A DNA stretch of 40,448 nucleotides from an uncultured bacterium (GCA_964631335.1 CAZVXD010000002.1:2073-42520); one strand, 5' to 3'; positions 5,977 through 39,512 are shown, counted from the stretch's first letter. Made by a program: numbers and translations. The notes: a model not told the origin generated them from the letters alone.

Positions 5977-7302
5977 TTACTTGCACTCAAACAAATAATC
6001 GTTGAGTATTATTTCAAGAAGTTCTTGTCTGCCGGATTTCCTTTTGGGTTCTCCGTTTTTAAGCGCGTATTTTTCAAGAGATTCAAAATCTTCTTTACCG
6101 GAAACGATCGATTTTCCGATACCCTTTGTATAACTGGAATATCTTTCCTTTACAAATTTATCGATCTCTCCACCCTTAATCAGCGCGTCAGCGACCTTGT
6201 AAGCTTTGGCAAAGGAATCCATACCTGAAATGTGAGCATATACCAGATCATCGAGTTCAAATGACCCTCTTCTCACCTTGGCATCGAAATTCAATCCGCC
6301 TTTACCGAGGCCGCCATTCTTAATAACTTCATACATAGCCAGAGTTGTATCGTAAATGTTGCTGGGGAACTGATCGGTATCCCATCCGAGAAGTAGATCG
6401 CCCTGATTGGCATCGATACTTCCCAGAACACCATTAATTCTGGCAACTCTTAAATCGTGATTGAAAGTGTGTCTTGCCAGAGTGGCGTGATTGGCTTCGA
6501 TATTAAGTTTGAATTTATCGATAAGATCATAACTTCTCAAAAATCCTATAACAGTAGCAGAATCGAAATCATATTGATGTTTTGTAGGCTCGTGCGGCTT
6601 AGGCTCTATAAGGAACTGTGCTTTAAATCCGATTTTCTTAGCATAATCGCAAGCCATATGAAGAAAACGAGCCATGTTGTCCAGTTCCAATTTCATATCG
6701 TTATTAAGAAGGGTCTCATATCCCTCTCTTCCACCCCAGAAAACGTAATTTTCGGCACCTAATTCTTTTCCTACTTCCAGAGCTTTTTTAACCTGAGCCG
6801 AGGCATAAGCAAAAACATCCGCGTCCGGAGAAGTAGCCGCGCCATGCATAAATCTCGGGTTGGAAAAGAGATTAGCCGTATCCCAGAGCAGTTTCGTTTC
6901 ACTGTTTTTCATATGTCCTTTTATGTGGTCAACAATGATACCGAGATTTTTGTTGGTCTCAGCAAGCGTATCTCCTTCCGGAGCAACATCCCTATCGTGG
7001 AAACAGAAATAAGGAACGCCTAAAATTTCAAACAACTCAAAAGCCGCATCAACTCTTGCTTTGGCTTTATCCATATCATCCGAAAAAGCTTGCCAGGGTC
7101 TATCAAATACCGCGTCACCGAATTGATCGCCACCATCTCCACAGAATGTATGCCAGTAAGCTACCGCAAACCTGAGATGCTCCTTCATCGTCTTACCGTT
7201 AATTTTCTCCTTTGGGTTGTAAAACTTAAAAGCAAGGGGATTTTTTGATTTCTTACCTTCAAATTTTATCTTTTTCATGTTACCAAAAAATTTTTGTGCC
7301 AT
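5977..7302 (-). CDS. xylA: xylose isomerase (class II)
   Basis: 441 aa with the XylA N-terminus ([20 protein letters not shown]) and the motifs FCFHDRD, WGGREGY and [18 protein letters not shown]. SD is AGGAG. Confidence 0.95.
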
Positions 7303-7330
7303 ATCTCACTCTCCTTTAAAGTTTAATATA

Positions 7331-8845
7331 CTAATCTTCCATAACCGCGCAGTCGATTATTTTTTCTTCCGTTGCGTCTTTACGTAAGAATTCTCCTGTT
7401 ATTCTACCTTCAGCCATTACAAGAATCCTGTCACTCATACTCAATATTTCAGGTAGCTCGGATGATATAATAATAATACCTAATCCCTGAAATGCAAGTA
7501 AGGAAATTAGGAAGTGTATCTCAGCCTTTGCCCCAATATCAATCCCTCGGGTTGGCTCATCCAAAATAAGGATTTCCGGCAACGAAGCGAGCCATTTGGC
7601 AAGAACCACCTTCTGCTGGTTGCCGCCGGAAAGGCTCTTTACAGGAGAAAATGGATTAGAGGGACTTATTTTTAATTTATTTATATAATTATCTACTATT
7701 TCATCTTCTTTTTTCTTATCTATAACTTTCAATTTAGAAATACTATTCAAAATGGGAAGCGTTATATTTTCCTTGATATTCATAAGCGATACAAGCCCCT
7801 GCGATTGCCTGTCTTCCGGCACAAATCCGATTCCTTTGTTTATAGCATCGGCGGGAGACCCTATAGATACTTCTTCTCCCCCGAGAAAGATCGAACCCTC
7901 ATCGAGTCTATCCACACCGAATATCGCTCTCATGGTTTCCGTCCTTCCGGCTCCCACCAGGCCATAAAAACCCAATATCTCACCTTTTCTTACCTGGAAA
8001 CTAACGTTATCTATTAATTCTTTTTTTGTTAAATTCTTAACTTCAAAAATTTTTTCACCTATCTTCTTCTTTTTTCCCGGGTACATATCAAGATCCCGCC
8101 CCACCATCATCTGGGTAACTTTCTTTTCGGTAGCGTCCTTTACATCCAGGCGACCGGCGTTTTTACCATCCCGGAGGACAACAATCCGGTCACATATACT
8201 AAAAACCTCACTCAGTTTATGGGTCACAAAAATAAAAGTTAATCCCAGTTTCTTAAGCTTATTTACTATAGCAAAAAGCTTTTCTATCTCATTATCGGTA
8301 AGAGGCGCTGTCGGCTCATCCATTATTATCAGTTTAGAATCGATCGATATAGCCCTGGCAATCTCCACCATCTGTTTCTGAGCCACGCCTAATTTTCTAA
8401 TCGGAGTATCTCCAGAAAACCTCACTCCCAGTTTAGTTAAATGCTCTGAAGCTACCCGTTCCATCTCTTTTCTGTCTAACAACCCTAAAACATTACCCTT
8501 TCTGGGCTCTCTTCCCATAAGTATGTTTTCGGAAACTGAAAGATTGAGAGCTATATTAAAATGCTGATGAATAAAACTTATACCTTTTTTTTGAGCATCG
8601 TGAGGATTCCGCAGTTTTATTTCCTTACCTTCAAAGAATATTTTTCCGCTATCCTGCTGGTAAAAACCGGTCGGCGCGGGATGAGGATTTAGAATCTCCA
8701 TCAAAGTAGTTTTACCCGCTCCGTTTTCACCCACAAGAGCGAGCACTTCCCCTTTATACACTTCGAGATCCACTTCATCGAGGGCTTTTACTCCCGGAAA
8801 ATTTTTTGTGATTTTCTCCATGCGGAGAAGAAATTCGTTACTCAC
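7331..8845 (-). CDS. CUT2-family sugar ABC transporter ATP-binding protein (duplicated ATPase; xylose/ribose type)
   Basis: 504 aa with two ABC cassettes (GENGAGKTT and GLVGAGRTE Walker A; LSGGNQQK signature). The GTG start overlaps the stop of the binding-protein gene (GTGA). It sits in the xylA/xylB operon. Confidence 0.9.
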   Translation of the reverse strand: MSNEFLLRMEKITKNFPGVKALDEVDLEVYKGEVLALVGENGAGKTTLMEILNPHPAPTGFYQQDSGKIFFEGKEIKLRNPHDAQKKGISFIHQHFNIALNLSVSENILMGREPRKGNVLGLLDRKEMERVASEHLTKLGVRFSGDTPIRKLGVAQKQMVEIARAISIDSKLIIMDEPTAPLTDNEIEKLFAIVNKLKKLGLTFIFVTHKLSEVFSICDRIVVLRDGKNAGRLDVKDATEKKVTQMMVGRDLDMYPGKKKKIGEKIFEVKNLTKKELIDNVSFQVRKGEILGFYGLVGAGRTETMRAIFGVDRLDEGSIFLGGEEVSIGSPADAINKGIGFVPEDRQSQGLVSLMNIKENITLPILNSISKLKVIDKKKEDEIVDNYINKLKISPSNPFSPVKSLSGGNQQKVVLAKWLASLPEILILDEPTRGIDIGAKAEIHFLISLLAFQGLGIIIISSELPEILSMSDRILVMAEGRITGEFLRKDATEEKIIDCAVMED

Positions 8846-9840
8846 AGGCTAAAAGTATGCGCAATACCCCATTGATCCATTATTTTTAAATATCCCTCAA
8901 GATTTTCTCTGGAGACAACGTCTACTCCGGTATCTATTATACAATCTCCGTCTTTATTTTTGGGAAGCGAATCGAGGGTCTCTTCCATTCCTTTTTTATT
9001 CATACTATGAAGTATTTTTACTCCCTCATAGCCCATTAAATATTGTTTTTGGGCGATTGTGGCATCGATTAGCCCTTCATCGATCAAATACAAATGTTCA
9101 TCGGTTACGTCGAATGAAACTATATGTATCTTACCCTTTTTTCCGGCTGCTTTTACGGCTTTAGCCGCGGAAGGTCCGTTAAAAGCGTAAACACCAAAAA
9201 AAGCGTCGAGATCCGGATTGTTGAGTAGAGCTGTTTCCGCCAGCTCTACTGCCCTGGAGGTTTCCTCATTGTCACACAAAATCGGCTCTATAATTTCTAT
9301 TCCCGGATGCTTTTTAATCGCGTCTTCGAATCCTCTCATCCGCTCAAGAGAATTCATAGCGGTAAGAGAACCGGTTGCTATGGCAACTTTGCCTTTTCCT
9401 CCGAGAATTTCCGCCATCTTCTCACCGGCAACCCTGCCTGCCGTATAATTGTCGGTACCTATATAACAAATCCTCTCTGAATTCGGAGAATCGGTGTCTA
9501 TGGTAATAGTAGGGATTCCTTTCTCAATAGCCAGATTAATCGGGGAAACAAGAGCCTCAGGATCGGAAGGGGCAACCGCTATGCCTTTATACCCCATGGA
9601 TATCCATGTCTCGATTGTTTCTATTTGCCGTGGGATATCTTCTTTCTGGGGCATAAATACCGTAACTTTTACGCCCAATTCCTTACCCGCGTCTTCAGCT
9701 CCTTTTTTAACCACATCCCAGTAAGGACCAACGCTTTTACCAAGTACGCCATACCGGGATTCTTCCCCGGCGCACCCGGAGAAAAGCCCGAATACAATAA
9801 AAGCTATCAAAAGAAACCAGACCTTTAAAAAACTTTTCAT
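8842..9840 (-). CDS. sugar ABC transporter periplasmic substrate-binding lipoprotein (RbsB/XylF-like PBP type I)
   Basis: 332 aa with a lipobox (LFSGC) and a Peripla_BP_4-like sequence. It lies between the permease and ATPase genes. Confidence 0.85.
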   Translation of the reverse strand: MKSFLKVWFLLIAFIVFGLFSGCAGEESRYGVLGKSVGPYWDVVKKGAEDAGKELGVKVTVFMPQKEDIPRQIETIETWISMGYKGIAVAPSDPEALVSPINLAIEKGIPTITIDTDSPNSERICYIGTDNYTAGRVAGEKMAEILGGKGKVAIATGSLTAMNSLERMRGFEDAIKKHPGIEIIEPILCDNEETSRAVELAETALLNNPDLDAFFGVYAFNGPSAAKAVKAAGKKGKIHIVSFDVTDEHLYLIDEGLIDATIAQKQYLMGYEGVKILHSMNKKGMEETLDSLPKNKDGDCIIDTGVDVVSRENLEGYLKIMDQWGIAHTFSL

Positions 9841-12379: not shown

Positions 12380-12646
12380 TAATCAAAGACATTTCACATG
12401 AATATATATAATGACAATTACAATTCATGCAAGAGGTTAAACTTAAATAAAAAATCAAATACAAAAACGCAAAATCGCGAATAAAAATAAAAAAAGGTCT
12501 AAAAAAATATAAAAATAAGTAACTTTTTTGAGAAAATAAAGGTTGATGAACGATAATTTGTCAAATATTGAAAAAATAAAAATCCTTTATGAATCTTGAT
12601 GCCTTATCGCCAATTACTTTTTTATTTAAAAAAAAGAAAAATAGCC

Positions 12647-12674
12647 TTGCAAATTTTCTACACTATATTAAAAT
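12647..12674 (+). promoter_or_regulatory. sigma70-type promoter, ccTTGCAA-16-TAAAAT, for the PAS kinase / regulator operon
   Basis: The -10 ends 11 nt before the ATG at 12686, and there is no SD. Confidence 0.5.
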
Positions 12675-12685
12675 TTATAATACAG

Positions 12686-15016
12686 ATGTCAAAAGATGAA
12701 GTTTCGGTAGAAATAAAACAAAAATCCGATAAAAAGGATAATAATTTAAGATATTTGTCTTCAAAAAACAAAAAATCTTTTTTCCTGATCTTCGACAATT
12801 GTCCCTACCCAATTTTTCTCATAAACAAAGAAGGAATAATCGAAGATTTAAATCCGGCTTCTGCCAAACTATTAAAAAGAAAAAAAACGGAAATTCAAAA
12901 CAAAACCTTTCAAAAACTACTAAAAGAAGAATCGGAAAAATCATTTAATGAAAAATTCGACATTTTTATCAAAAAGGATTATAAAAAAATAGAATTTAAC
13001 ATCATTTTTAAGGGTAAAAAAACAGATTCCGACGTTACCTGCTCCGTTTTGCTGGTCAAACACGACAACACCAAAGACGACAGAATCATCCTTTTCGCAC
13101 ATGATATTACCGAGCTGAAAGAAGCACAGAAAGCGGCGGCTTTCAAAAGCAACCTTTTAACCTCTTTACTCGACAACATCCCTGATCATATTTACTTCAA
13201 AGACAAAAAAAGCCGTTTTGTTCAAGCGAGTAAATCTGTGGCAAATCAGTTTGGAGTTAAAAGCGTAAACGAACTTATAGGTAAAACCGATTTCGATTAT
13301 TTTACAAAAGAACACGCCGACCTGGCTTTTAACGATGAACAGGAAATAATAAAAACAGGTAACCCTATAGAAGTAAAAGTAGAAAAAGAAACACATCCGG
13401 ACGGAAGAATAACCTGGGTGTCAACAACCAAAATACCGAGATACGATGAAGAAGGAAATATCATCGGAATTCTTGGTATATCGAGGGACGTGACCAAAAG
13501 AAAAGAGCTGGAAGAAAAGCTGAAGCAGAAACTTGAGAAACTCGGAGAAGAAATTCTATTTAAAAGCCGTTTGCTTACTTCTCTTTTAAATAACATACCG
13601 GATCGCATTTATTTCAAAGACGAAAAAAGCCGATTCATAACCGTAAGTGAATCACTTGTCAGGTGGTTGGGAGCGGTGAACGCCGAAGAGATGATAGGAA
13701 AGACGGACTTTGATTATTTCACAGAAGAACACGCAGAACCAGCTTATGAAGATGAACAAAACGTCATGAAAACAGGTAAACCGATTGAAGGGAAAATGGA
13801 AAAGGAAACGCACTCTGACGGAAGAATAAGCTGGGTTTCAACAACCAAAATACCGAGATACGATGAAGAAGGAAACGTAATGGGAACACTCGGAATATCC
13901 AGAGACATTACGGATAAAGTACTGGCAGAGAAAAAACTCGAAGAAAGCGCGAACAAATTGAAAACCATAGTAAACGCGGTAAGCGAGGGACTGGCGATAA
14001 TCGACGAAAACCATATAATACTGGAAGCTAACGATTTTCTCTGTCAATTATTCGGCTTAAAAAGAGAAAAAGTAATAAACAAGAAATGCCATAAAATCTT
14101 TCCCCCGTGGGAAGAATCCTGCCGGGATTGCCCCCTTAAAAAAGTATTCGATAAAAAAGAAAGTTCCCCTCTAATAGAAAGAACAAAAGTATTAAAGAAC
14201 GGAACAATACAATATTTCAGCATCCAATGTTATCCTATTCCGAATTACAACGAAAAAGAACTTAAAAGCGTTATATCGATAAGAGATATAACCGAACGCA
14301 AAAACATGGAAAAGGAAAACATGCAAAATTACAAGAGAAAAATGAAAAATTTATCTCATAAATTAACTCTGGCGGAAGAACACGAAAGAAAAAGAATCGC
14401 GACCGATCTTCACGCGGACATCGGACAAACACTTGCCTTTTTGCAACTCAAGATTGGCGAACTAAAGGAAAAAAACTCCTCCCCTCAAATACAAAAATCA
14501 CTGCAGGAAATTTACAATCTCGTTCAGGATGCTATCACTTCAGCCCGTTCGCTGATGACACAGATCAGCCCCACGATTCTTTACGAACTCGGCTTTGAAC
14601 CAGCCGTAGACTGGTTAGCTGAAAATATTTTAAAGAAAAATAATATAGAATATGAATTTAACAACGACGGAAAGGAAAAACCGTTAACCGACGATATCGG
14701 CATCTTACTATTCCAGGCTGTTCGAGAATTATTGCTCAATATAAGAAAACACGCTAAGGCTAAAAAAGTAAAAATCTCAATAAAAAGATGCAAAGAAAAT
14801 ATTCAAATAATAATAGCCGATAATGGGATCGGGTTTGACATTTCTTCGTTAGATTCATATTGTGAAAAAGACGTAGGATTTGGCCTTTTAAATATACGTA
14901 GTCGTATCGACGTAGTAGGCGGATCCTTTGAAATAGAATCACACAAAAAAAGGGGAACCAAGATAACATTAAAAGCACCTATAAACACCTCAAAAGGAGT
15001 GTCGAATGAGCATTAA
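12686..15016 (+). CDS. cytoplasmic multi-PAS sensor histidine kinase (HisKA_3 / HATPase_c, NarL-partner type)
   Basis: No TM segment and at least four PAS-like regions. The dimerisation/phospho-acceptor box is HERKRIATDLHADIGQTL, and a GFGL ATPase lid is present. I prefer the ATG at 12686 because the ccTTGCAA/TAAAAT promoter lies inside the ORF-track extension (12596). Confidence 0.85.
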   Translation: MSKDEVSVEIKQKSDKKDNNLRYLSSKNKKSFFLIFDNCPYPIFLINKEGIIEDLNPASAKLLKRKKTEIQNKTFQKLLKEESEKSFNEKFDIFIKKDYKKIEFNIIFKGKKTDSDVTCSVLLVKHDNTKDDRIILFAHDITELKEAQKAAAFKSNLLTSLLDNIPDHIYFKDKKSRFVQASKSVANQFGVKSVNELIGKTDFDYFTKEHADLAFNDEQEIIKTGNPIEVKVEKETHPDGRITWVSTTKIPRYDEEGNIIGILGISRDVTKRKELEEKLKQKLEKLGEEILFKSRLLTSLLNNIPDRIYFKDEKSRFITVSESLVRWLGAVNAEEMIGKTDFDYFTEEHAEPAYEDEQNVMKTGKPIEGKMEKETHSDGRISWVSTTKIPRYDEEGNVMGTLGISRDITDKVLAEKKLEESANKLKTIVNAVSEGLAIIDENHIILEANDFLCQLFGLKREKVINKKCHKIFPPWEESCRDCPLKKVFDKKESSPLIERTKVLKNGTIQYFSIQCYPIPNYNEKELKSVISIRDITERKNMEKENMQNYKRKMKNLSHKLTLAEEHERKRIATDLHADIGQTLAFLQLKIGELKEKNSSPQIQKSLQEIYNLVQDAITSARSLMTQISPTILYELGFEPAVDWLAENILKKNNIEYEFNNDGKEKPLTDDIGILLFQAVRELLLNIRKHAKAKKVKISIKRCKENIQIIIADNGIGFDISSLDSYCEKDVGFGLLNIRSRIDVVGGSFEIESHKKRGTKITLKAPINTSKGVSNEH

Positions 15017-15653
15017 GATAATGGTAGTAGACGAACACAAGATTTTAAGAGAAGGGCTTTCAACTTTAATCGCGAAACAACCCGAAATGGAAATAATAGG
15101 TGAAGCTACAGACGGGAGAGAAGCTTTACAACTATTAGAGAAAAACACACCAGACCTGATATTAATGGACGTGACAATGCCGAACTTAAACGGTATCGAA
15201 GCAACCAGAAAAATCAAAGCTAAAAAACCGGGTATAGAGATAATAGCGCTCTCACTTCATTCCGACAGGAGATACGTGCTGGGTATGATTGACGCGGGTG
15301 CTTCCGGGTATCTGCTTAAAGAATGCGCGTTTGAGGAACTGGTCCGCGCCATAAACACCGTCATGTCTAAGAAGAAATATTTAAGTCCCGGAATATCCGA
15401 TATCCTTATCGACGAATACGTAAAGAAAACCACAACCGATAAACCCACCATTTATTCAAAGTTAACTCCGAGGGAAAGAGAAATTCTTCAGTTAATCGCT
15501 GAAGGTAAAAACACAAAAGAAATTGCCAGATATTTATTTATATCTGTAAAAACCGTAGAAACTCACAGAAGACACATAAAAAAGAAACTAAAAGTTGACA
15601 GTGTAGCCGAACTAACCAAAATAGCTATTAGAGAAGGTCTTACTGTCCTGTAA
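15006..15653 (+). CDS. NarL/LuxR-family response regulator (REC + HTH_LuxR)
   Basis: 215 aa. It has the acidic pocket VVDEH ... LMDVTMP, a C-terminal LTPREREILQLIAEGKNTKEIA helix-turn-helix, and an 11-nt overlap with the kinase gene. Confidence 0.9.
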   Translation: MSIKIMVVDEHKILREGLSTLIAKQPEMEIIGEATDGREALQLLEKNTPDLILMDVTMPNLNGIEATRKIKAKKPGIEIIALSLHSDRRYVLGMIDAGASGYLLKECAFEELVRAINTVMSKKKYLSPGISDILIDEYVKKTTTDKPTIYSKLTPREREILQLIAEGKNTKEIARYLFISVKTVETHRRHIKKKLKVDSVAELTKIAIREGLTVL

Positions 15654-15824
15654 ATTAAAATATAAAAAAATTTAGACTTTCAGCAACCCGCGGCTGAATT
15701 AAAGTAATTCCAATAAAAATCAAATCAGAATAATGCCATAAAAGTTACGCCCTTCCAACCCTCGTAGGGCACGGCTTTAGCTGTGCAAACCTATTGATAA
15801 TTTTGGCACAGCCTCTTCGGTCAC

Positions 15825-15972
15825 TGGTCACTTGTCAAAAAAGCAAAAAAAATTCGTGTTATTCGTGTAATTTGTTGTTGTTCTTTGTTTTAAATTTAAA
15901 ATTTACAACTTGCAATTTTCAATTCACAATTAAACACTGAAATGTTCCTTTGTGTCCTTCGCGTGCTTTGTG
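15825..15972 (+). repeat. left arm of 148-bp inverted repeat bracketing the TRAP operon
   Basis: Base-by-base comparison with the reverse complement of 19072-19219 gives 147/148 identity. The single mismatch is 15835 T versus C. Confidence 0.95.
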
Positions 15973-15980
15973 TGAACTAT

Positions 15981-16012
15981 AGTTTCGAGTTACGCGTTTA
16001 AAGTTTCGGGTT
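15981..16012 (+). repeat. degenerate heptad array (AGTTTCG AGTTACG CGTTTAA AGTTTCG GGTT)
   Basis: Read directly. Its reverse-complement type recurs at 35538. Confidence 0.75.
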
Positions 16013-16027
16013 AAAAAAACAATAGTA

Positions 16028-16050
16028 TCCTTTGTGTAATTCGTTGTTTC
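16028..16050 (+). repeat. TTCGTG..TAATTYGTTG module, short copy
   Basis: The sequence is TCCTTTGTGTAATTCGTTGTTTC. Confidence 0.6.
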
Positions 16051-16078
16051 TTTTAGTTTTTGGGCCGTAGGTGGGCTT

Positions 16079-17371
16079 TTAAAATCCGAACAAACGAGGC
16101 AAAGAAAGTGAGACACCCGGTATATAGGTAATCAAAAGCAAAGCAATTATCATTGCCGCGAACAGAGGCAAAAGACTTTTAAAAACTTCATGTATCTTTC
16201 CATGCCCCACACCGACCCCGACAAAAAGAACAGTTCCTACAGGAGGCGTAACTAAACCTATACAAAGATTAGCGATTATTATTATCCCAAAATGGACCAG
16301 ATCTATACCAAGATACTGTATTATCGGAAGAAATATAGGAGTAAATATCAAAATAGCCGGGGTCATATCCAGAAAAGTACCCACAAACAGCAATAAAAAA
16401 TTGATCATCAGGAGAATAGCTATTTTGTTGCTCGAAATAGACATTATTCCCGAACTTATAAGCTCGGGAACATTCTGAGACGCCATAAACCAGGACATAC
16501 CTGTCGAAGCGCCGATTAAAAGCATAACAACCGAAGTTGTAATTCCGCACTGAAGTAAAATTCCGGGTAAATCCTTCCATTTAACCTCTTTATAAACAAA
16601 AACCGCGAGAATAAAAGCGTAAACAACCGCGATACTAGCCGCTTCCGTGGGAGTAAACATTCCGGAGAGAATTCCACCCATAACTATCAGAATCAACAAT
16701 AAACCCGGCAGCGCTCCGAAAAATCTCCTGATTGTTTCTTTCATGGGAATAATCTTTCCGGTTCCATAACCGCGCTTCTTCGCTATTATAGCGCTCACAA
16801 TCATCAGAAATAATCCCACTAAAATACCGGGGACAATTCCCGCCAGGAAAAGAGCGGCGACAGATACCGAACCTGTAACAAGAGCGTAAACAATCATCAC
16901 ATTACTTGGAGGAATTAAAAGACCGGTTGTGGCGGCGCACGCGGTTAAAGCTATATTAAAATTCTTATCATACCCCTTTCTGTTCATCTCAGGGATCATA
17001 ACTCCTCCGATAGAGGTTACGGCCGCGACCGAAGAACCGGATACCGCTCCAACCAGCATACAGCCCAGAGTATTGACAAAAGCGAGTCCTCCCGTAAATC
17101 TCCCAACCAGAGCTTCCGCGAAATCGACCAGTCTTCTGGCTATTCCACCTCTTCCCAACAGCAAACCCATAAGAATAAAAAACGGTATTGCCAGGAGAGC
17201 AAAACTATCTATACCTGTCGCGAGACGCGGCGCGACTATATCCATAGCGGAAACACCTCCGACTGCCATAACAGCCCATAAGGTCGCGAGACCAATACAT
17301 ACACCAATGGGTACATTCATGGCAAGGAGTATTAAAAAAGTCCCCACCATTACCAGAACAGGCACACTCAT
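16079..17371 (-). CDS. dctM: TRAP transporter large permease subunit
   Basis: 430 aa, polytopic, DctM-type sequence. It overlaps dctQ by 4 nt. Confidence 0.9.
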   Translation of the reverse strand: MSVPVLVMVGTFLILLAMNVPIGVCIGLATLWAVMAVGGVSAMDIVAPRLATGIDSFALLAIPFFILMGLLLGRGGIARRLVDFAEALVGRFTGGLAFVNTLGCMLVGAVSGSSVAAVTSIGGVMIPEMNRKGYDKNFNIALTACAATTGLLIPPSNVMIVYALVTGSVSVAALFLAGIVPGILVGLFLMIVSAIIAKKRGYGTGKIIPMKETIRRFFGALPGLLLILIVMGGILSGMFTPTEAASIAVVYAFILAVFVYKEVKWKDLPGILLQCGITTSVVMLLIGASTGMSWFMASQNVPELISSGIMSISSNKIAILLMINFLLLFVGTFLDMTPAILIFTPIFLPIIQYLGIDLVHFGIIIIANLCIGLVTPPVGTVLFVGVGVGHGKIHEVFKSLLPLFAAMIIALLLITYIPGVSLSLPRLFGF

Positions 17372-17877
17372 CTTGTCCTCTCCTTAATCAAAAACGATAC
17401 ATCTTTGAAAACAAATTCTATAGAGTATGTGATTATAAAAAAAGCGCTTATAGGGAGACAGAGATAAAGATATCCCGTGGGAATTCCCAATGTAGGCAAA
17501 GTTTGATGGTTGACAAACGCGTTCCACACGAAATTTATACCGCCAATCAGCATAACCTGAAACGCGAAATATCCGACCAAGATAGCAATCACTATCTCCA
17601 GCATTCTTCTGTGACGCGCGCTTAATTTGTAGGCAAAATATTCCATACCCACGTGAGCTTTTTGCCCGTAAGCGTACGCGGCGCCGACTATCCCGCACCA
17701 CATCAACATGTAAGTAGAAGATTCTTCAGTCCAAACGGCGGGTACCTTTAAAACGAGACGCGTAAAAACCTGCCAGAGAACGGCTATAACCATTATAGCC
17801 ACAATAGTAATAACAAAAAAACCAAGTATCCTGTTGCGCCAGTCCGACAAAATCTTCAAAAAATTTCTCAGGGACAT
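17368..17877 (-). CDS. dctQ: TRAP transporter small permease subunit
   Basis: 169 aa with 4 predicted TM helices. It lies between dctP and dctM. Confidence 0.85.
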   Translation of the reverse strand: MSLRNFLKILSDWRNRILGFFVITIVAIMVIAVLWQVFTRLVLKVPAVWTEESSTYMLMWCGIVGAAYAYGQKAHVGMEYFAYKLSARHRRMLEIVIAILVGYFAFQVMLIGGINFVWNAFVNHQTLPTLGIPTGYLYLCLPISAFFIITYSIEFVFKDVSFLIKERTR

Positions 17878-17891
17878 ATTATAAAAAACTT

Positions 17892-18902
17892 TTAATCGGA
17901 TAAATCTACGGATTTAATTTTTTCAAGTAAAGGACCTATAACTTCATCTTCAGCGTATTCTTCATACATCGGCTGTACTGCTTCTATAAAAGGAGTCTGG
18001 TCGGGAATTGTCACTTCCACACCTACCGAGTCCAGAAGCTCAAAATTCTCTCTCACAACCTCCGCCCAGAGTTTTCTCTGATACTCCACTGAAACATCAA
18101 AAGTTTTTATCATTATAGCTTTATCCTCTTCACTCAGTTTCTCCCAGGCTTTTTTACCCGCGATCACAACATCCATCGGTGAGGTGTGCTTATCCAGGGA
18201 AAAATATTTACAAACTTCATAATGCCTCGCCGAGACAAAAGAAGGAGGATTGTTTTCGGCTCCGTCCACGGTTCCCTGCTGCAGAGCGGTATAAAGCTCA
18301 CCCCAGCTTATAGGTGTGGGAGAAGCACCCAGTATTTTCAATAAATTTATAGCCATCGGGCTTTTTATAACCCTGATTTTCAAATTCTTTAAATCAGCCG
18401 GTGTTTTAATCGGTCTATTTTTTGTATAAAAACTCCTTTCTCCCGCTTCATAAAAACCGATTCCCACAAGTCCTCTATCCGAACCGGCAGCCAGCAATTC
18501 CTTCCCAAAAGCAGAGTTAAGAACTTTCCATTTATGTTCCTTGCTCTTAAAAATATACGGCATTCCGAGAACTTTCATCTGCGGCACAAAAGCTTCTAAG
18601 CCGGCTGAAGATACTTTGGTCAAATCCAGGGTTCCCATCTGGAGCTGTTCGATTAATTCCTTTTCTCCTCCCAGCTGACCACCCGGATATATTTTTATTA
18701 CTATACGCCCATCGGTGGCTTTGTTTAAAGTGTCAGCCCAGAATTCCATCGCCTTATGTACCGGATGATTTATGTCCAGAGCGTGTCCCAATTTTAAATT
18801 TATTTCACCTTTAGATGTTTCGCCTTTACCTCCGCAACCTGTGGTAATAAGCAGCACTGAAAGAATAAAAACAAAGAAAAAACAATTCCTTAATAACTTC
18901 AT
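17892..18902 (-). CDS. dctP: TRAP transporter substrate-binding lipoprotein (DctP family)
   Basis: 336 aa with a lipobox (ITTGC) and a DctP-family sequence (LKLGHAL... LQQGTVDGAENN). SD is GGGAGG. Confidence 0.9.
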   Translation of the reverse strand: MKLLRNCFFFVFILSVLLITTGCGGKGETSKGEINLKLGHALDINHPVHKAMEFWADTLNKATDGRIVIKIYPGGQLGGEKELIEQLQMGTLDLTKVSSAGLEAFVPQMKVLGMPYIFKSKEHKWKVLNSAFGKELLAAGSDRGLVGIGFYEAGERSFYTKNRPIKTPADLKNLKIRVIKSPMAINLLKILGASPTPISWGELYTALQQGTVDGAENNPPSFVSARHYEVCKYFSLDKHTSPMDVVIAGKKAWEKLSEEDKAIMIKTFDVSVEYQRKLWAEVVRENFELLDSVGVEVTIPDQTPFIEAVQPMYEEYAEDEVIGPLLEKIKSVDLSD

Positions 18903-18949
18903 ATAATACCTCCCGATTGTTAATACATAATATCTTAAAATCTACGACT

Positions 18950-18977
18950 ATACTAATATTTTAGAATTCTTTGTCAA
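18950..18977 (-). promoter_or_regulatory. sigma70-type promoter, ccTTGACA-16-TAGTAT, for dctPQM
   Basis: Read on the reverse strand. It lies inside the inverted-repeat-bounded segment, about 45 nt upstream of the dctP start. Confidence 0.55.
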
Positions 18978-19071
18978 GGCTATTTTGCCGCGAAGGCTCT
19001 AAGACACGAAAAACAACAAAATTAATATTACTGATTAACAAACCACCCCTATCCCTAAAAACTAATTGAAC

Positions 19072-19219
19072 CACAAAGCACGCGAAGGACACAAAGGAAC
19101 ATTTCAGTGTTTAATTGTGAATTGAAAATTGCAAGTTGTAAATTTTAAATTTAAAACAAAGAACAACAACAAATTACACGAATAACACGAATTTTTTTTG
19201 CTTTTTTGGCAAGTGACCA
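19072..19219 (-). repeat. right arm of 148-bp inverted repeat bracketing the TRAP operon
   Basis: It is the reverse complement of 15825-15972 (147/148 identical). Weak homology (TCTTCGG) continues 11 nt beyond the outer edges. Confidence 0.95.
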
Positions 19220-19248
19220 GCCTCCGAAGACTAATGACCAAGTCGTTC

Positions 19249-19299
19249 ACATGTAGAACATGTAGGGATTGTAGCGGTAATGGTGACAGTACTAATGTA
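19249..19299 (+). repeat. degenerate 9-nt array (ACATGTAGA ACATGTAGG GATTGTAGC GGTAATGGT GACAGTACT AATGTA)
   Basis: Read directly. Confidence 0.7.
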
Positions 19300-19400
19300 T
19301 TTAAGTCAAGGGAACTTCTTGCCACGGAGTACACAGATGAAAAAACGCGCATATAACTAAATGAATGGATGCCTAGACAAAGGCTGTTATCTATCATACA

Positions 19401-20717
19401 TCATTCATTGTCGGCCGCAAGGTTTCTTGAAGAGTACTTTCTGTAAACACATTCAGTTAAAAAAGACAGCGCCAAGACAGAAACAAGAACAATAATAGTT
19501 TTCGGAGAATTCTTAATCTCATAGTAAATCAAAACAACGAAAGAAAAAATGCATCCAAAAATAGAAGACCATATAAGATATGGATTCGCGCCAGTCTCTT
19601 TATAAAGCCTTAGATGCGCAAAATTAACGGCACAATAAATAATCAGAAAGGAAGCGCTGCCGAGCATAGCGATTCCGTCCAGATTCAGTAAATTTGTAAA
19701 TAAAATAACCAGACCGGCAGTTATAAATAGTCCTTCTCTATTTTCTCTCCATAATTTTCTTTCAAAAAAAGCCGGTAATTCTCCTTCTTTTGCTATCATA
19801 TAACTTACATTTGCCCCGCCGTAAAGAGTGGCATTAATGGCTGACGAAGTAGAGAATAATGCGGCAACAGCGATTACTTTAAAGCCTACAACTCCGAGAA
19901 AAGGTTTGGCAGCCATTGCCAGCGCATAATCTTTTGCTTCGACTATCTTAGAAACAGGCAAATTACCTATTACGGTCAAAGAGACCGCTAAATATATAAC
20001 GATACATATCAAAACGCTCAAATACAAAGCCCTGGGCAGTGTTTTCCCCGGATTAACCATATCATCAGCCGCATTCGTAATTAAACCAAAACCTTCATAA
20101 GCGAGAAAGACAATTCCTGAGGCAAAAAATATATTAGAAACATGCGGAAAATTCGAAAAGGACAAAAGCGAAGGCTTAATAAAAAAAACACCTATAGAAG
20201 CAAACGCAATGAGAATCAAAACTTTTATTCCAACAATAAATACTTCCGATTTCCCAACAGCTTTAGACCCAATAATGTTAATTGCTGTAAACACGATAAT
20301 TATACCCGTAGAAAATATATTAATCCAGAAACGACTGGCTTCAGCGGGTAAAAACGTCGTAGCATAACCCGCAAATGCGCGGGAATAAAGGCATAAAGCA
20401 AATATATATCCAACCCACAACAAAATATTTAATCCCCCGCTCAGAATGCTGTCGCCGAAACCCTTAATAAGAAACTCTACGGGACCTCCCGCTGAAGGAT
20501 ACCTAACTCCTAACTTCGCGAAAGAATAGGTGCTCAAAAAAGCTACAATACCGGCAGTCAAGAATGCCAGATACATTGCATTTCCAGCTATTTGCGCTGC
20601 CAGACCCAATACAGAGAAAATCCCCGCCCCTATCATTCCACCTACACCAATGGAAACAGCTCCGAAAAGCCCTATAGTTTTTTTCCCTTCTATCTTACTA
20701 TCCCGTGTATCATTCAT
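19401..20717 (-). CDS. APC-superfamily amino acid/polyamine permease
   Basis: 438 aa with about 12 TM helices and an N-terminal GLFGAVSIGVGGMIGAGIF motif typical of APC permeases. Confidence 0.78.
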   Translation of the reverse strand: MNDTRDSKIEGKKTIGLFGAVSIGVGGMIGAGIFSVLGLAAQIAGNAMYLAFLTAGIVAFLSTYSFAKLGVRYPSAGGPVEFLIKGFGDSILSGGLNILLWVGYIFALCLYSRAFAGYATTFLPAEASRFWINIFSTGIIIVFTAINIIGSKAVGKSEVFIVGIKVLILIAFASIGVFFIKPSLLSFSNFPHVSNIFFASGIVFLAYEGFGLITNAADDMVNPGKTLPRALYLSVLICIVIYLAVSLTVIGNLPVSKIVEAKDYALAMAAKPFLGVVGFKVIAVAALFSTSSAINATLYGGANVSYMIAKEGELPAFFERKLWRENREGLFITAGLVILFTNLLNLDGIAMLGSASFLIIYCAVNFAHLRLYKETGANPYLIWSSIFGCIFSFVVLIYYEIKNSPKTIIVLVSVLALSFLTECVYRKYSSRNLAADNE

Positions 20718-20719
20718 TT

Positions 20720-20736
20720 TTATTCATTATGAATAA
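20720..20736. promoter_or_regulatory. 17-bp palindrome TTATTCAT-T-ATGAATAA abutting the APC permease start codon
   Basis: Perfect 8-bp arms, 2 nt upstream of the ATG (20715-20717 on the reverse strand). It occupies the position where an SD would sit. Confidence 0.3.
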
Positions 20737-20844
20737 GCACAAATACTAAAATACTCCTAATTTTATCCGCAAGATTTAAATCCTTTTTCATAGTGCAAGC
20801 TTTATCCCATAATATAGTCCTTCTTCAAAAAAATCTTTCTTTTT

Positions 20845-20872
20845 ATCTTAAAGAAATTCCACACTTTGTCAA
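20845..20872 (-). promoter_or_regulatory. sigma70-type promoter, TTGACA-16-TAAGAT, for the APC permease gene
   Basis: Read on the reverse strand. It implies a leader of about 125 nt. Confidence 0.45.
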
Positions 20873-20926
20873 TAAAAAAATCCTATTTTTTCTCTAAAAA
20901 AGACAATTAAAGTTCACCTAAATACC

Positions 20927-22586: not shown

Positions 22587-22590
22587 AGCT

Positions 22591-23271
22591 CTATTCCTTC
22601 GAATAGATTATAGACATCCACTTTTCCGCGACTTCTTCCATTTTCTGCGGATTATCTATATTCCTGGTAATTGCCGAACCGCAAAATATTCCATCGGGAT
22701 CGTTTTTTACAATTTCCTCCAGATTTTCCGCGGACACTCCTCCCGTATAGAACACGGCCAAACCTTTATAAGGTCCTTTCCAGGCTTTTGTAATACCATA
22801 AAAAGAATTTGTGGCTGTAACTGTAGGAAAAAGCTTATATACCCACTGGTAAGGATATTTATCTTTTAATTCCGAAAATTCACAACCATAGAGTTCCGCT
22901 TTCTTAACAAGCTGCTTTCCCACATCACCCAAACCTCCTGGGACACACATAATATCTTCAGAAACGCACATTTTCAACACTTCAGGAATATAATCGGCGG
23001 ATATAATACCCGCCACACCCTTACCGATGGCATCTTCCGCTAATTCCGGGGTCATAACCGTTCCGGCAAGAATTAGCGCGTCGGGATATTTTTCGAGAAC
23101 AGCTTCTATACCCTGCGAAGCGATCTCTGAACGAAAAACAATCTCGAGGGTAACCCCGAGAGGATTCAATATTTCATAAGCTTCAATACACTCGGCAGTA
23201 GTTGCCGGAGCTAAAATCGCAATGACCCTATTCTCTTTAATTCTCTTAAAAACTTCTGCCGATTTACTCAC
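22591..23271 (-). CDS. KDPG/KHG aldolase-like protein (Eda family, divergent)
   Basis: 226 aa with a GTG start and a GGAGG SD. Aldolase-like features are RVIAIL, GAGTV-like LAGTVMT and the Schiff-base-lysine context YKLFPT. It carries an internal insertion relative to typical Eda proteins. Confidence 0.65.
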   Translation of the reverse strand: MSKSAEVFKRIKENRVIAILAPATTAECIEAYEILNPLGVTLEIVFRSEIASQGIEAVLEKYPDALILAGTVMTPELAEDAIGKGVAGIISADYIPEVLKMCVSEDIMCVPGGLGDVGKQLVKKAELYGCEFSELKDKYPYQWVYKLFPTVTATNSFYGITKAWKGPYKGLAVFYTGGVSAENLEEIVKNDPDGIFCGSAITRNIDNPQKMEEVAEKWMSIIYSKE

Positions 23272-23520: not shown

Positions 23521-23562
23521 ACTACCCTTGAGATTACTTCGCGGAGGGTGAAGCAGGAGGTA

Positions 23563-23578
23563 AAACTCGTAATGACAA
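23563..23578 (+). repeat. 16-nt exact word AAACTCGTAATGACAA (copy 1)
   Basis: It is identical to 27316-27331 and has the same order and orientation relative to the 45-nt block. Confidence 0.8.
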
Positions 23579-23622
23579 TTTTTTCGTGTGTTTTTTTAAC
23601 AAAATCAAAAGGTGTAGTGGGG

Positions 23623-23653
23623 TTTTCGTATATTTCGTATGTTTCGTGGTTCA
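23623..23653 (+). repeat. 9-nt-period module (TTTTCGTAT ATTTCGTAT GTTTCGTGG TTCA)
   Basis: Three near-identical units, ending in GTGGTTCA. Confidence 0.8.
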
Positions 23654-23684
23654 ATAATTTTGTTGTTTTTCTTTTTGTTCTTTT

Positions 23685-27137: not shown

Positions 27138-27167
27138 TGAACCACAAAGCCCGCAAAGGTCACAAGG
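27138..27167 (-). repeat. 30-nt inverted repeat, left copy (CTTTGTG..GGTTCA module)
   Basis: TGAACCACAAAGCCCGCAAAGGTCACAAGG matches the reverse complement of 27362-27391 at 28/30 positions. Confidence 0.9.
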
Positions 27168-27178
27168 TTTTATTTTTT

Positions 27179-27210
27179 AGCCAAAAGCCAAAGGCGAAAG
27201 GCTAAGAGCT
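27179..27210 (+). repeat. degenerate heptad array (AGCCAAA AGCCAAA GGCGAAA GGCTAAG AGCT)
   Basis: Read directly. The reverse-complement type is at 28446. Confidence 0.8.
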
Positions 27211-27219
27211 TAGTTAAAT

Positions 27220-27243
27220 AACAAATCACACGAATAACACGAA
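27220..27243 (-). repeat. TTCGTG..TAATTYGTTG module copy (reverse)
   Basis: The minus strand reads TTCGTGTTATTCGTGTGATTTGTT. Confidence 0.8.
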
Positions 27244-27315
27244 TAATTTTTTATTTTTCCCTTCTGACTTCCTCGTCTTTTAAACATTCTAACCGGCAAT
27301 TATCATGTAGAACTC

Positions 27316-27361: not shown

Positions 27362-27391
27362 CCTTGTGTCCTTAGCGGGCTTTGTGGTTCA
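27362..27391 (+). repeat. 30-nt inverted repeat, right copy (CTTTGTG..GGTTCA module)
   Basis: The sequence is CCTTGTGTCCTTAGCGGGCTTTGTGGTTCA. The two copies enclose 194 bp made of other mosaic modules. Confidence 0.9.
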
Positions 27392-29058: not shown

Positions 29059-29070
29059 AAGATTTCTAAT

Positions 29071-29143
29071 TGGAGGCGAGCGGACTCGAACCGCTGACCT
29101 CCTGCGTGCAAGGCAGGTGCTCTACCAGATGAGCTACGCCCCC
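29071..29143 (-). tRNA. tRNA-Ala (anticodon TGC)
   Basis: The reverse complement is GGGGGCGTAGCTCATCTGGTAGAGCACCTGCCTTGCACGCAGGAGGTCAGCGGTTCGAGTCCGCTCGCCTCCA. The cloverleaf folds, the G3:U70 identity pair is present, the anticodon loop is CTTGCAC, and no CCA is encoded. Confidence 0.93.
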
Positions 29144-29153
29144 ACAAAAAAAA

Positions 29154-29227
29154 TGGGCCTAAGTGGAATCGAACCACTCACCTCTCGCTTATCAGGCGAA
29201 CGCTCTAACCGACTGAGCTATAGGCCC
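29154..29227 (-). tRNA. tRNA-Ile (anticodon GAT)
   Basis: The reverse complement is GGGCCTATAGCTCAGTCGGTTAGAGCGTTCGCCTGATAAGCGAGAGGTGAGTGGTTCGATTCCACTTAGGCCCA. It has a 7-bp acceptor stem, anticodon loop CTGATAA and T-loop TTCGATT. Confidence 0.93.
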
Positions 29228-29239
29228 ACTATGTCCGTA

Positions 29240-32373: not shown

Positions 32374-34248
32374 ATGGAAAAAGAAACAAAGAAATTCGAT
32401 GTAATAGTTGTGGGAGGAGGGCACGCGGGAATAGAAGCAGCACTTGCCTCTACCCGGAGAGGTTTTGATACTCTGCTACTTACCATAAGTCCTGAACTTA
32501 TAGGTCAGATGTCCTGCAACCCTTCCATAGGCGGCGGAGCAAAATCCCAGCTGGTTTTCGAAGTAGACGCCCTGGGGGGAGAGATGGCTTACAATACCGA
32601 TATTACCGGAATACAATTTAAAATGTTAAACTCGAAAAAAGGTCCCGCCATATGGGCTCTTCGGGCGCAATCAGACAGAAAAGATTACAGGGAAACAATA
32701 AAAAAAACACTATTGAATGAAGTACCGGCTAAAAATGAAAAAGTAACAGGAATCATTGTAGAAAGGAAAAGAATAAAAGGAGTTAAAACAGCTTCAGGGA
32801 AAGAGTTCTTCTCAGACGCTGTTGTACTTACCACAGGTACTTTTCTCTCCGGATTAATCCACATAGGACTTGAATCGTTCCCTTCCGGAAGATTGGGTGA
32901 ACCTCCTTCAATAGGCTTATCGGATTCTTTAAAGAAAAATGGCCTCAAACTCGGACGTCTCAAAACAGGCACTTCAGCCCGCGTAGATATGAGATCGATA
33001 GATCTATCAAAAACGACAATTCAACCGGGAGACGAAGACCCACTCAATTTTTCTTACAGAACCAGGGAATTCAATCCTCCCAACGTGCCATGCTTCCTGA
33101 CCTGGACGAATAAAAACACTCACGATATTATACGTAAAAACTTGAAATATTCTCCCCTGGTTCAGGGTAAAATAACCGGAGTAGAACCGAGATATTGTCC
33201 TTCTCTGGAAACAAAAATTCTGAAATTCCCGGAGAAAACTCATCACCATGTTTTTATAGAACCCGATGGATTGGATACTCACGAAGTCTATTTAAACGGA
33301 GTATCTTCTTCCCTGCCGGAAGAAATACAGGAACAATTTTTAAAAACAATACCCGGACTCGAAAACGTGAAAATTATAAAACCTGGTTACGCGGTCGAAT
33401 ATGACTTCGTACCTCCGACGCAACTTAAACACTCACTGGAAACGAAAGCAATAGAGGGTTTATTTCTGGCAGGGCAGATAAACGGAACTTCCGGATACGA
33501 AGAAGCAGCGGCTCAGGGAATAATCGCCGGTATAAACGCGACTCTAAAAATAGAAAAAAAGGGATACCTGGCTCTAAGAAGGGATGAAGCCTATATCGGA
33601 GTTCTAATAGACGATTTAGTCATAAAAGGCACGGAAGAACCCTACCGTATGTTTACTTCAAGAGCGGAACACCGTTTACTGTTAAGACAGGATAACGCCG
33701 ATCTTAGACTCGCCGGATATGGTTACAATCTGGGTCTTCTGAGCAAAGAAAGATTTGAACAGGTCGAGGAAAAAAAGGAAAAAATAAAAGAAACCGAAAC
33801 CCTCCTTAAAAAGACAATTATAACGCCTAAAGATGTTCCGGTAATAAAAAAACCGGTAAACGCGTTCAGCCTGGCTAAAAGAGCCGATTTCGAGATCGAC
33901 GATATAGAAAAGATAACAGGAATAAAAATAAACAAAAACATCAAGAATACTATCAGAATAAATATCCGTTACGACGGATATACAGAGCGGGCAACTAGAA
34001 AAATAAAAGAATTAAAGAAGATGGAAAATTTTCGTATACCTCCGGAGGTGGATTATGCCAAAATTCAGGGAATATGTACCGAAAGCATCGAAAAGCTGAA
34101 TCGCATCAAACCCGAAACTTTCGGTCAGGCGACCAGAATCTCAGGAGTTAAACCCACCGATATGCAGGCACTTATGTCTTATATATCCAGAATCAGCAAC
34201 ACTAAAAAATCCCGTAAAACGACTGAAAAACAAGGAGCAAAAAAATAA
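32374..34248 (+). CDS. mnmG: tRNA uridine 5-carboxymethylaminomethyl modification enzyme
   Basis: 624 aa, GidA/MnmG sequence throughout ([16 protein letters not shown] ... MSCNPSIGG ... RPGYAVEYD ... [16 protein letters not shown]). Confidence 0.95.
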
Positions 34249-39347: not shown

Positions 39348-39380
39348 TAGTCGTTAGTCTCCAGTCACTGGTCGTTTGTC
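39348..39380 (+). repeat. degenerate heptad array (TAGTCGT TAGTCTC CAGTCAC TGGTCGT TTGTC)
   Basis: Read directly. Its last units are homologous to the outer end of the 148-bp repeat. Confidence 0.8.
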
Positions 39381-39430
39381 AAAAGAAAAGAATAATTCGT
39401 GCTATTAGTGTAATTTGTTGTTCCTTGTTT
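39366..39430 (+). repeat. diverged third copy of the outer ~70 nt of the 148-bp repeat
   Basis: CACTGGTCGTTTGTCAAAAGAAAAGAATAATTCGTGCTATTAGTGTAATTTGTTGTTCCTTGTTT aligns with 15822-15892 at roughly 85 percent identity with small gaps. Confidence 0.8.
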
Positions 39431-39457
39431 GGGATGGAGAGGGTAAAACAAATAAAA

Positions 39458-39489
39458 ATCTTTGCGATCTTCGTGAACTTTGTGGTTCA
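39458..39489 (+). repeat. 9-nt-period module (ATCTTTGCG ATCTTCGTG AACTTTGTG GTTCA)
   Basis: Three units ending in GTGGTTCA, followed by a G-rich block that abuts the GTPase stop. Confidence 0.8.
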
Positions 39490-39512
39490 AGTTTTCTGGT
39501 TGGGTGGGGTGG

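Follow-up and report, generated by a model that had tools for sequence, protein, structure and literature searches.

In a 40,448-nt stretch of DNA from an uncultured bacterium (GCA_964631335.1 CAZVXD010000002.1:2073-42520, hereafter the window), two nearly identical inverted repeats, referred to below as the left and right arms, bracket dctPQM, an operon coding for a tripartite ATP-independent periplasmic (TRAP) transporter. The comparisons described here indicate that the arms are probably a recent, short-range and non-reciprocal copy produced within a rapidly turning-over family of intergenic spacer repeats. Judged from synteny and composition, dctPQM and its promoter are native, ancestral and fixed at this site, and the arms are the newcomers. 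We regard the repeat pair as a by-product of spacer turnover, which provides a substrate for RecA-dependent inversion, and nothing indicates a programmed switch. The window originates from an uncultured candidate division WOR-3 bacterium, the named relatives of its MnmG (32374-34248) being labelled by NCBI as members of this division (one 98%-identical partial protein and one of 74% identity). The close contigs compared with it, designated by L and a number, all come from JGI, ENA and Logan metagenomes.

The initial annotation had reported near-identical inverted repeats of 148 bp, and base-by-base comparison confirmed that 15825-15972 and the reverse complement of 19072-19219 share 147 of 148 bases, the sole mismatch within this core being T at 15835 against 19209 (C in the reverse complement). 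Extension to 15814-15972 and 19072-19230 (159 nt, 97% identity) adds three further mismatches. The arms are separated by 3099 nt, their longest perfect inverted match is 137 nt, and in a self-BLAST they constitute by far the strongest non-coding repeat of the window. As had also been claimed, they enclose exactly one unit, namely, the dctP promoter together with dctP, dctQ, and dctM.

15814..15972, plus strand: left arm, with the core 15825-15972 matching the right arm at 147 of 148 positions; found in L003 and L004, not in L005-L010.
19072..19230, minus strand: right arm, counterpart of the left one in opposite orientation, located upstream of the dctP promoter; L001 and L002 also contain its junction with the dctP side.

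The repeat pair is real, because three of its four junctions recur in independent assemblies. The left arm, together with the sequence on either side of it, is also contained in L003 (JGI, 99.98% identical) and L004 (ENA, 98.5%), and the right arm with its dctP-side junction in L001 (JGI 3300031355) and L002 (Logan), making up four independent contigs from three pipelines. The outer junction of the right arm is supported by the window only, and the window is itself a metagenome-derived contig; a collapsed or chimeric repeat, against which the initial annotation had cautioned, is nevertheless scarcely credible in the face of these four contigs. Exact-protein look-ups for more bridging contigs returned nothing for the permease, DctQ (169 aa), and the short-chain dehydrogenase/reductase (SDR) gene, and only L002 again for DctQ (163 aa).

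Stop codons are present in all six reading frames of the arm, and the only open reading frame (ORF) overlapping it (19104-19397) is without a Pfam match. Neither strand of the arm folds more stably than shuffled sequence (z +0.50 and +0.34), and Rfam yielded no match in or around the arms, whether the gathering threshold or a cutoff of E = 1 was applied. The ends of the arm (outer TCTTCGG.CTGGTCAC and inner GCTTTGTG) show no inverted similarity, and no direct repeats flank them. No further full-length copy was found in the accessible data, comprising the 40-kb window, short contigs of the strain, and metagenome scans; the arm-core 22-mer GCAATTTTCAATTCACAATTAA had no metagenome match, a weak absence, since the collection evidently lacks L003 and L001.

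Judged by its modules, each arm is one composite (~160 bp) of a lineage-specific, modular, non-coding, and non-palindromic family of intergenic repeats, in keeping with the mosaic family to which the arms had been assigned at the outset. Most of the long spacers in the window are built of strand-asymmetric, A+T-rich modules, each consisting of two to four reiterated units of 7-9 nt. The left arm is composed of a GTCAC-type periodic module, an A-run, a module termed M1, a T-rich periodic core, and a module termed M2. The modules in and beside the arms are as follows.

15852..15879, plus strand: M1 of the left arm, ATTCGTGTTATTCGTGTAATTTGTTGTT, three 9-mers; the right-arm partner is at 19165-19192, minus strand.
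15950..15977, plus strand: M2 of the left arm, ending in GTGTGAAC (alternative terminus); about three 9-mers, the two arms ceasing to be identical beyond ...GCTTTGTG at 15972.
19067..19094, minus strand: M2 of the right arm, ending in GTGGTTCA (usual terminus by module comparison).
15978..16050, plus strand: module X (TATAGTTTCGAGTTACGCG...) with an M1-like tail, just inside the left arm; kept in all conspecific contigs.
19020..19071, minus strand: inner, variable part of the right spacer, with G-rich TTAGTTTTTAGGGATAGGGGTGG and other modules, common to the L008 allele and not to the L006 allele.

Within the window, M1 (ATTCGTGTTATTCGTGTAATTTGTTGTT) is matched nine times at up to three mismatches (0.15 expected) and M2 (...TTGTGTCCTTCGCGTGCTTTGTGGTTCA) eight times at up to two mismatches (0.8 expected), the densities of M1 and the long (28-nt) M2 being 22 and 15 per 100 kb, respectively. 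Both M1 and the 28-nt M2 are enriched in the window and the conspecific contigs and present in related species, and both are absent from 1.3 Mb of loci of other phyla. The exact M1 22-mer was found at 28 metagenome loci in many gene contexts, where the M1 core is 94-100% conserved and the flanks are unrelated, with the whole arm at none of the 28. Among the metagenome loci, M2 terminates in GTGGTTCA/GTGGTTA or in GTGTGAGA/GTGTGAA, and composites recur in the order of periodic array, A-run, M1, G-rich or T-periodic core, A-run, and M2. None of 43 M1 matches is located inside an ORF. An arm paralogue in the window (39358-39498) has the same outer module and M1 followed by another core; its identity to the arm (83% over 66 nt at 39358-39422) bears out the lower similarity initially ascribed to another family member. 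The right allele of L006 has a paralogue of 94% identity at window 27143-27244. A description of these repeats in WOR-3 was not found in the literature. As a separate observation, two M2 modules at 27138-27167 and 27362-27391, 194 nt apart in one spacer between minus-strand genes, form a 30-nt inverted repeat (93%).

The orientation of the modules is biased with respect to the neighboring genes. M1 is directed toward a 3' gene end in 29 cases and toward a 5' end in 8, and toward the nearer gene in 25 of 35; the inward keto skew amounts to +0.07 for 3' and +0.02 for 5' ends and is about zero in controls. The rule that the GT-rich strand always points into the adjacent gene was dropped, the bias being real but weak and the units of L119 pointing outward. 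A function as Rho-utilization sites is likewise unsupported, the RNA leaving the genes being A-rich with C about equal to G (22 each in the arm).

Comparison among strains of the same species reveals that the arms are polymorphic around an unchanged operon. The dctM side is bridged by eight conspecific contigs (L003-L010), of which L003 and L004 contain the left arm. In L005-L010, which are 98.4-99.2% identical to the window and derive from five samples and one NCBI metagenome-assembled genome, dctPQM has the same place and orientation and the arm is absent, window positions 15801-15962 being swapped for a mosaic of ~265 nt with 90% similarity to window 23528-23683. At least three alleles can be distinguished on the dctP side (that of the window, that of L006, L007, and L009, and that of L008); the right-arm position is filled by other mosaics in L006, L007, L009, and L008, and at least two other mosaics stand in place of 19020-19245 in the arm-less conspecifics. 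Homology with the window on this side resumes at ~19019, 50 nt inside the inner edge of the arm. The initial annotation had left open a very recent duplication or identity kept by conversion; both are in line with the single difference in 148 positions between the arms and with the left arm of L004, a strain 1.5% diverged, which differs from that of the window at ~3 positions as read off the alignment.

The variable position on the left begins at a fixed boundary, that is, a segment of ~150 nt downstream of the response-regulator gene that is kept between species, unlike the rest of the spacer (15654-15800; ~13110-13260 in L012). Two small hairpins, TTCAGC-N8-GCTGAA and GCACGGC-TTTA-GCTGTGC, are observed in it. 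This segment, the operon, and the neighboring genes are listed below.

12596..15653, plus strand: genes for a PAS/HisKA_3 histidine kinase and a NarL/LuxR-type regulator, convergent with dctPQM; adjacency kept in 10 of 10 related species.
15654..15800, plus strand: conserved stretch following the response-regulator gene, the invariant left-hand limit of the variable cassette position; also kept in L012.
16079..17371, minus strand: dctM, large TRAP membrane subunit (Pfam PF06808, E 7e-118).
17368..17877, minus strand: dctQ, small TRAP membrane subunit (Pfam PF04290, E 5e-28).
17892..18902, minus strand: dctP, TRAP solute-binding protein (Pfam PF03480, E 1e-85).
18950..18992, minus strand: dctP core promoter TTGACA-16-TAGTAT (18977-18950) with the upstream GGCAAAATAGCC motif, inside the arms; kept across strains and species.
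19401..20717, minus strand: amino-acid permease gene, reading in the same direction as dctPQM and lying beyond the right arm.

According to Pfam, the P, Q, and M subunits of a TRAP transporter are all present and adjacent, and the kinase (12596-15016) and regulator (15006-15653) genes are situated to the left of dctM. In ten related species, whose DctP proteins share 81-86% identity, these regulator and kinase genes invariably face dctPQM in convergent orientation; the spacer between dctM and the regulator gene varies from 44 nt (L019, L021) to 683 nt. Relatives had been proposed as a source of an empty site or of the opposite orientation, but the eight conspecific contigs and the ten species all have dctPQM at this site and oriented as in the window. 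A comparison of base composition, proposed for the same purpose, gave no distinct value for dctPQM (GC 0.41-0.44 vs 0.36-0.44 in the flanks), and this lack of contrast argues against a foreign origin. Because synteny and orientation are constant in the conspecifics and the ten species and the GC content is like that of the surroundings, the operon can be regarded as native and fixed. The GGCAAAATAGCC motif and the core promoter are conserved in every right-spacer allele and in related species. The sequence GTGGCAAAA(T/C)AGCC is located directly upstream of the dctP -35 element (18978-18992, minus strand) and at the same position in L006, L012, L019, and L021; it may serve as the binding site of the NarL-type regulator encoded alongside. 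The conservation of this sequence, together with the adjacency of the genes in ten species, suggests that dctPQM may be controlled by the neighboring kinase and LuxR-type regulator.

These findings bear directly on the reading of dctPQM as a mobile cassette put into the center of a palindrome, for which the initial annotation had pointed to a 5-bp target duplication and short terminal inverted repeats. TGAAC does adjoin the inner edge of both arms, as reported (15973-15977 and 19067-19071), and TAGTTT and AAACTA are located 2 nt further in. However, after ...GCTTTGTG the right arm goes on with GTTCA, the usual M2 end, and the left with TGAAC-TATAGTTTCGAG, the alternative end with module X next to it. 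This junction is also seen, as GTGTGAAT-TATAGTTTCGAG, in an independent copy, the right spacer of L006 (GTG|TGAAC-TATAGTTTCGAG on the left of the window), and left allele B reads GCGTAAAT-TATAGTTTCGAG at that point. What had been taken for a target duplication are two alternative, normal M2 endings (GTGTGAAC and GTGGTTCA), lying within the variable spacer and not at its boundary with conserved sequence. The supposed terminal repeats belong to two unrelated modules, TAGTTT on the left being part of X in all strains and TAGTTT on the right part of the G-rich module TTAGTTTTTAGGG, which is common after M1 or M2. An insertion into a palindrome also disagrees with the syntenic, equally oriented operon and promoter in the conspecific contigs, six of which are without the arm, and in the ten species. 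The features of a composite transposon are likewise missing from this locus, with no transposase in the arms, no empty site in relatives, and no target duplication. On the evidence of these alignments, the mobile-cassette reading is refuted and retains next to no probability.

With the operon fixed and the arms variable, the origin of the pair is best sought in the behavior of the spacer family. Near-identical copies of spacer segments in neighboring spacers recur across the clade in both direct and inverted orientations. Around the same operon, L006 and L009, which contain an inverted copy of module X (73-80 nt, 90-93%) upstream of dctP, have an inverted pair of 80 nt and 90-93% identity (8093-8172 / 11328-11407 in L006), and L018, from another species, has an inverted pair of 118 nt and 93% identity made of other modules (3054-3171 / 6429-6546). 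Around other genes, L119 contains an inverted pair of 127 nt (95%) enclosing two divergent genes (288-414 / 3383-3509), L100 a direct pair of 206 nt (97%) enclosing two small ORFs (7210-7415 / 8437-8642), and L107 an inverted pair of 53 nt (92%). The members of such further pairs in related metagenome contigs (L100, L119, L099) are 1-6 kb apart. From locus to locus, the duplicated segments end at different points, which favors segmental copying rather than transposition of an element.

We infer the direction and mechanism of copying as follows. A composite of the right spacer would have been copied, in inverted orientation, into the spacer between dctM and the regulator gene, either as a gene-conversion-like patch or through a replication template switch. 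The right spacer is most likely the donor and the dctM-regulator spacer the recipient, because other strains also carry an M1...M2 scaffold on the right; the right alleles of the window and L006 have M1 (30 nt identical) and the beginning of M2 in common at homologous positions, and the left spacer of most strains holds an unrelated composite. One junction of the copy may have been formed in M2 homology (...GCTTTGTG|) and the other at TCTTCGG, and the mismatches clustered at the outer end (TCA vs AGG, T vs C) may represent the ragged end of the copied tract.

Several points weigh against this reading. Since the data consist of the window and the accessible contigs, a third full-length arm, dispersed elsewhere in the genome, could have served as the donor, and the metagenome collection evidently lacks some contigs of relevant samples (L003 being unmatched). 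Comparison within a locus detects nearby pairs only, and the apparent locality is partly a matter of ascertainment. In Salmonella, intrachromosomal recombination rates are reported to be uncorrelated with distance (PMC8262849), and on this account plain RecA-dependent conversion alone does not predict copying over a short range. The outer junction offers only 7 nt of shared sequence. Allele A is also found in L004, a strain 1.5% diverged, and therefore either the copying did not take place very recently or the allele was transferred from one strain to another. Finally, the end of L001 could reflect an arm-to-arm exchange or an inversion.

Instead of being copied one from the other, the arms might have arrived separately, as two independent insertions of a non-autonomous element, resembling miniature inverted-repeat transposable elements (MITEs), doublets of repetitive extragenic palindromes (REPINs), or palindrome-associated transposable elements (PATEs), mobilized in trans and placed on either side of the operon. 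The dispersed, strictly intergenic (0 of 43 M1 matches in ORFs), and strain-polymorphic nature of the family would agree with such insertions, as would the extent of some duplicated segments, which run from the A-run/M1 to the M2 terminus (L119, L100). The arm, however, has neither terminal inverted repeats nor a flanking target duplication nor a hairpin; the ends differ between loci, with the arms of L018 being devoid of both M1 and M2; and the accessible data yielded no other full-length copy, nor the window a candidate transposase. We consequently consider two insertions unlikely. Still less support can be given to the idea that the complementarity itself is selected, forming a long-range RNA duplex around permease read-through transcripts or an insulator pair at the DNA level. 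Its attraction is that the window, L006/L009, and L018 have different sequences, each arranged as an inverted pair around the same operon, which resembles compensatory change on the scale of modules. But most lineages (L008, L012, L014-L017, L019, L021) are without such a pair, pairs of direct repeats occur around other genes as often as inverted ones do, and the right arm precedes the dctP promoter, being transcribed with the operon by read-through only, all of which makes selection for pairing very improbable.

An identity of 137 nt without mismatch exceeds the minimal length for homologous recombination and can support RecA-dependent inversion. A RecA-dependent or otherwise catalyzed flip of the 3.1-kb segment might accordingly give rise to coexisting isomers, with the flipped dctPQM coupled to read-through from the kinase/regulator operon, as proposed at first. 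The first 154 nt of L001 correspond to the left arm with 6 outer bases and T at the polymorphic site, followed by the dctP side, so that left-type outer markers (this T and GGTCAC) are joined to the side of the dctP promoter as at an inversion junction; yet L001 stops 6 nt past the arm, and longer identical arms or an assembler following the other copy would explain its end equally well. The flipped state is represented in no contig, the end of L001 being ambiguous, and every bridging contig (the window and L003-L010) has the standard orientation, which is also invariant across the ten related species. Most conspecific strains are devoid of the arms altogether. As the initial annotation had noted, no transposase or recombinase is evident; transposase, recombinase, and integrase Pfam domains were absent from the 28 window ORFs scanned, and three ABC-transport ORFs outside the Pfam scan match L006 genes with transport domains. 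It had also been right about the lack of a visible terminator after the kinase/regulator operon, no canonical terminator being found in the two spacers of the window, including that from the regulator gene to the left arm; one related species (L016) has an ordinary bidirectional terminator in its dctM-regulator spacer. Inversion would not switch the operon off, since the promoter (18977-18950) is inside the segment and stays with the genes on flipping. We therefore judge an invertible operon to be improbable, and the coupling of flipped dctPQM to the read-through is speculation.

Copying within the spacer family remains, in our view, the probable origin of the arms, and it is worth comparing this family with known repeat systems. 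Like the repetitive extragenic palindromes (REPs) of enterobacteria and pseudomonads and the bacterial interspersed mosaic elements (BIMEs) that they form, which are associated with RAYT transposases and REPINs (PMC3333891, PMC2817692), the repeats are dispersed, extragenic, short mosaics of a small vocabulary, often at the 3' ends of genes and variable among strains. REPs, however, are G+C-rich palindromes of 20-40 bp that form hairpins and alternate in orientation, whereas the present modules are A+T-rich and GT-rich on one strand, with no fold above chance; the arm is an extragenic mosaic of a dispersed kind and not a hairpin-forming palindrome, and no gene resembling RAYT (a Y1 transposase) was seen in the window. 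A report on the STAR elements of staphylococci (PMC3532100) describes interspersed intergenic direct repeats of short reiterated units whose locations differ by species and whose loci expand or contract by strain, a likeness to the present family; in that account, however, the loci keep locus-specific sequence and are stable in a lineage, in contrast to the composites described here, which are swapped at 98.4-99% identity and copied to neighboring spacers. MITEs and Correia elements share the non-coding nature, the length of ~100-200 bp, the dispersal, and the polymorphism among strains, but the terminal inverted repeats and target-site duplications by which they are defined are absent from the arm, and the duplicated ends are not constant.

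Inverted pairs kept alike by conversion, such as tufA/tufB in Salmonella and the plastid inverted repeats with their two isomers (PMC7145664), have copies that are unexpectedly similar and can invert the segment between them. Those pairs are kilobase-long, ancient, and functional, whereas the arms here are 148-159 nt, non-coding, and absent from most conspecifics, and conversion at them is only surmised. Invertible promoters and shufflons (fimS, hin, and the invertons of Bacteroides) similarly have inverted repeats that bracket a promoter-bearing segment; in clear contrast to the long arms described here, their repeats are ~10-30 bp, a dedicated recombinase is encoded adjacently (none was found here), and the promoter flips relative to fixed genes. 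As genes and promoter would flip together at dctPQM, the arrangement is not the classical architecture of an invertible switch.

The attractive reading of a mobile TRAP cassette is thereby removed, and a phase-variable operon is left without evidence. The repeat family is a more interesting object than the arm pair: an uncultured phylum has a rich and rule-like vocabulary of spacer repeats that turn over faster than the genes diverge, and the family repeatedly yields near-identical repeat pairs around single operons. It is quite possible, although we advance this tentatively, that an undescribed WOR-3 family spreads over short ranges in either orientation, replaces spacer alleles at 98.4-99% identity, and leaves, as by-products, long inverted or direct repeat pairs around single operons that would then serve as substrates for inversion or deletion, with a copying mechanism (template switch or an enzyme as yet unknown) new for the spacer repeats of bacteria. 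Such pairs break short-read assemblies, L001, L002, and L011 all ending within repeat modules, and they may drive small inversions and deletions and shape regulatory variation at the strain level. If short-range copying were confirmed on complete genomes, the family would provide a tractable natural system for the birth and spread of intergenic repeats without a recognizable transposase.

Some further features of these contigs may be recorded. L099 contains a direct pair of 135 nt and 97% identity (1-135 / 5689-5823), whose sequence is unlike the M1/M2 mosaic. L098 (8517-10108) and L099 (125-4858) have in common a mosaic unit (97.5%) and a gene downstream of it (99.4%); the interval between unit and gene is ~0.4 kb in one and ~3.5 kb in the other, representing a multi-kilobase indel that starts at the mosaic spacer. 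The sensor kinase gene of the window has an internal direct repeat of ~300 nt (13142-13441 / 13559-13858, 71-75%), which corresponds to tandem PAS domains and is possessed by all relatives. A second kinase/regulator pair is present upstream of dctPQM in L014 and L017, where direct repeats of ~2 kb formed by the paralogous two-component genes flank the operon (3450-5391 / 9917-11859 in L014, 81%; 6949-9011 / 13454-15520 in L017, 78%). A pair of genes for tRNA-Ala(TGC) and tRNA-Ile(GAT), typical of the spacers of rRNA operons, stands alone at 29070-29228, no rRNA gene being detected in the window. Beside the dctPQM locus, gene content varies by >3 kb within the species: L006 (~98% identical) has two genes absent from the window, one, flanked by KduI and the permease, for a P-type cation ATPase of 815 aa (L006 3886-6544, at window 20729-20920) and a DUF4861 gene between the SDR and aldolase genes (L006 934-2217, at window 22587-22592).

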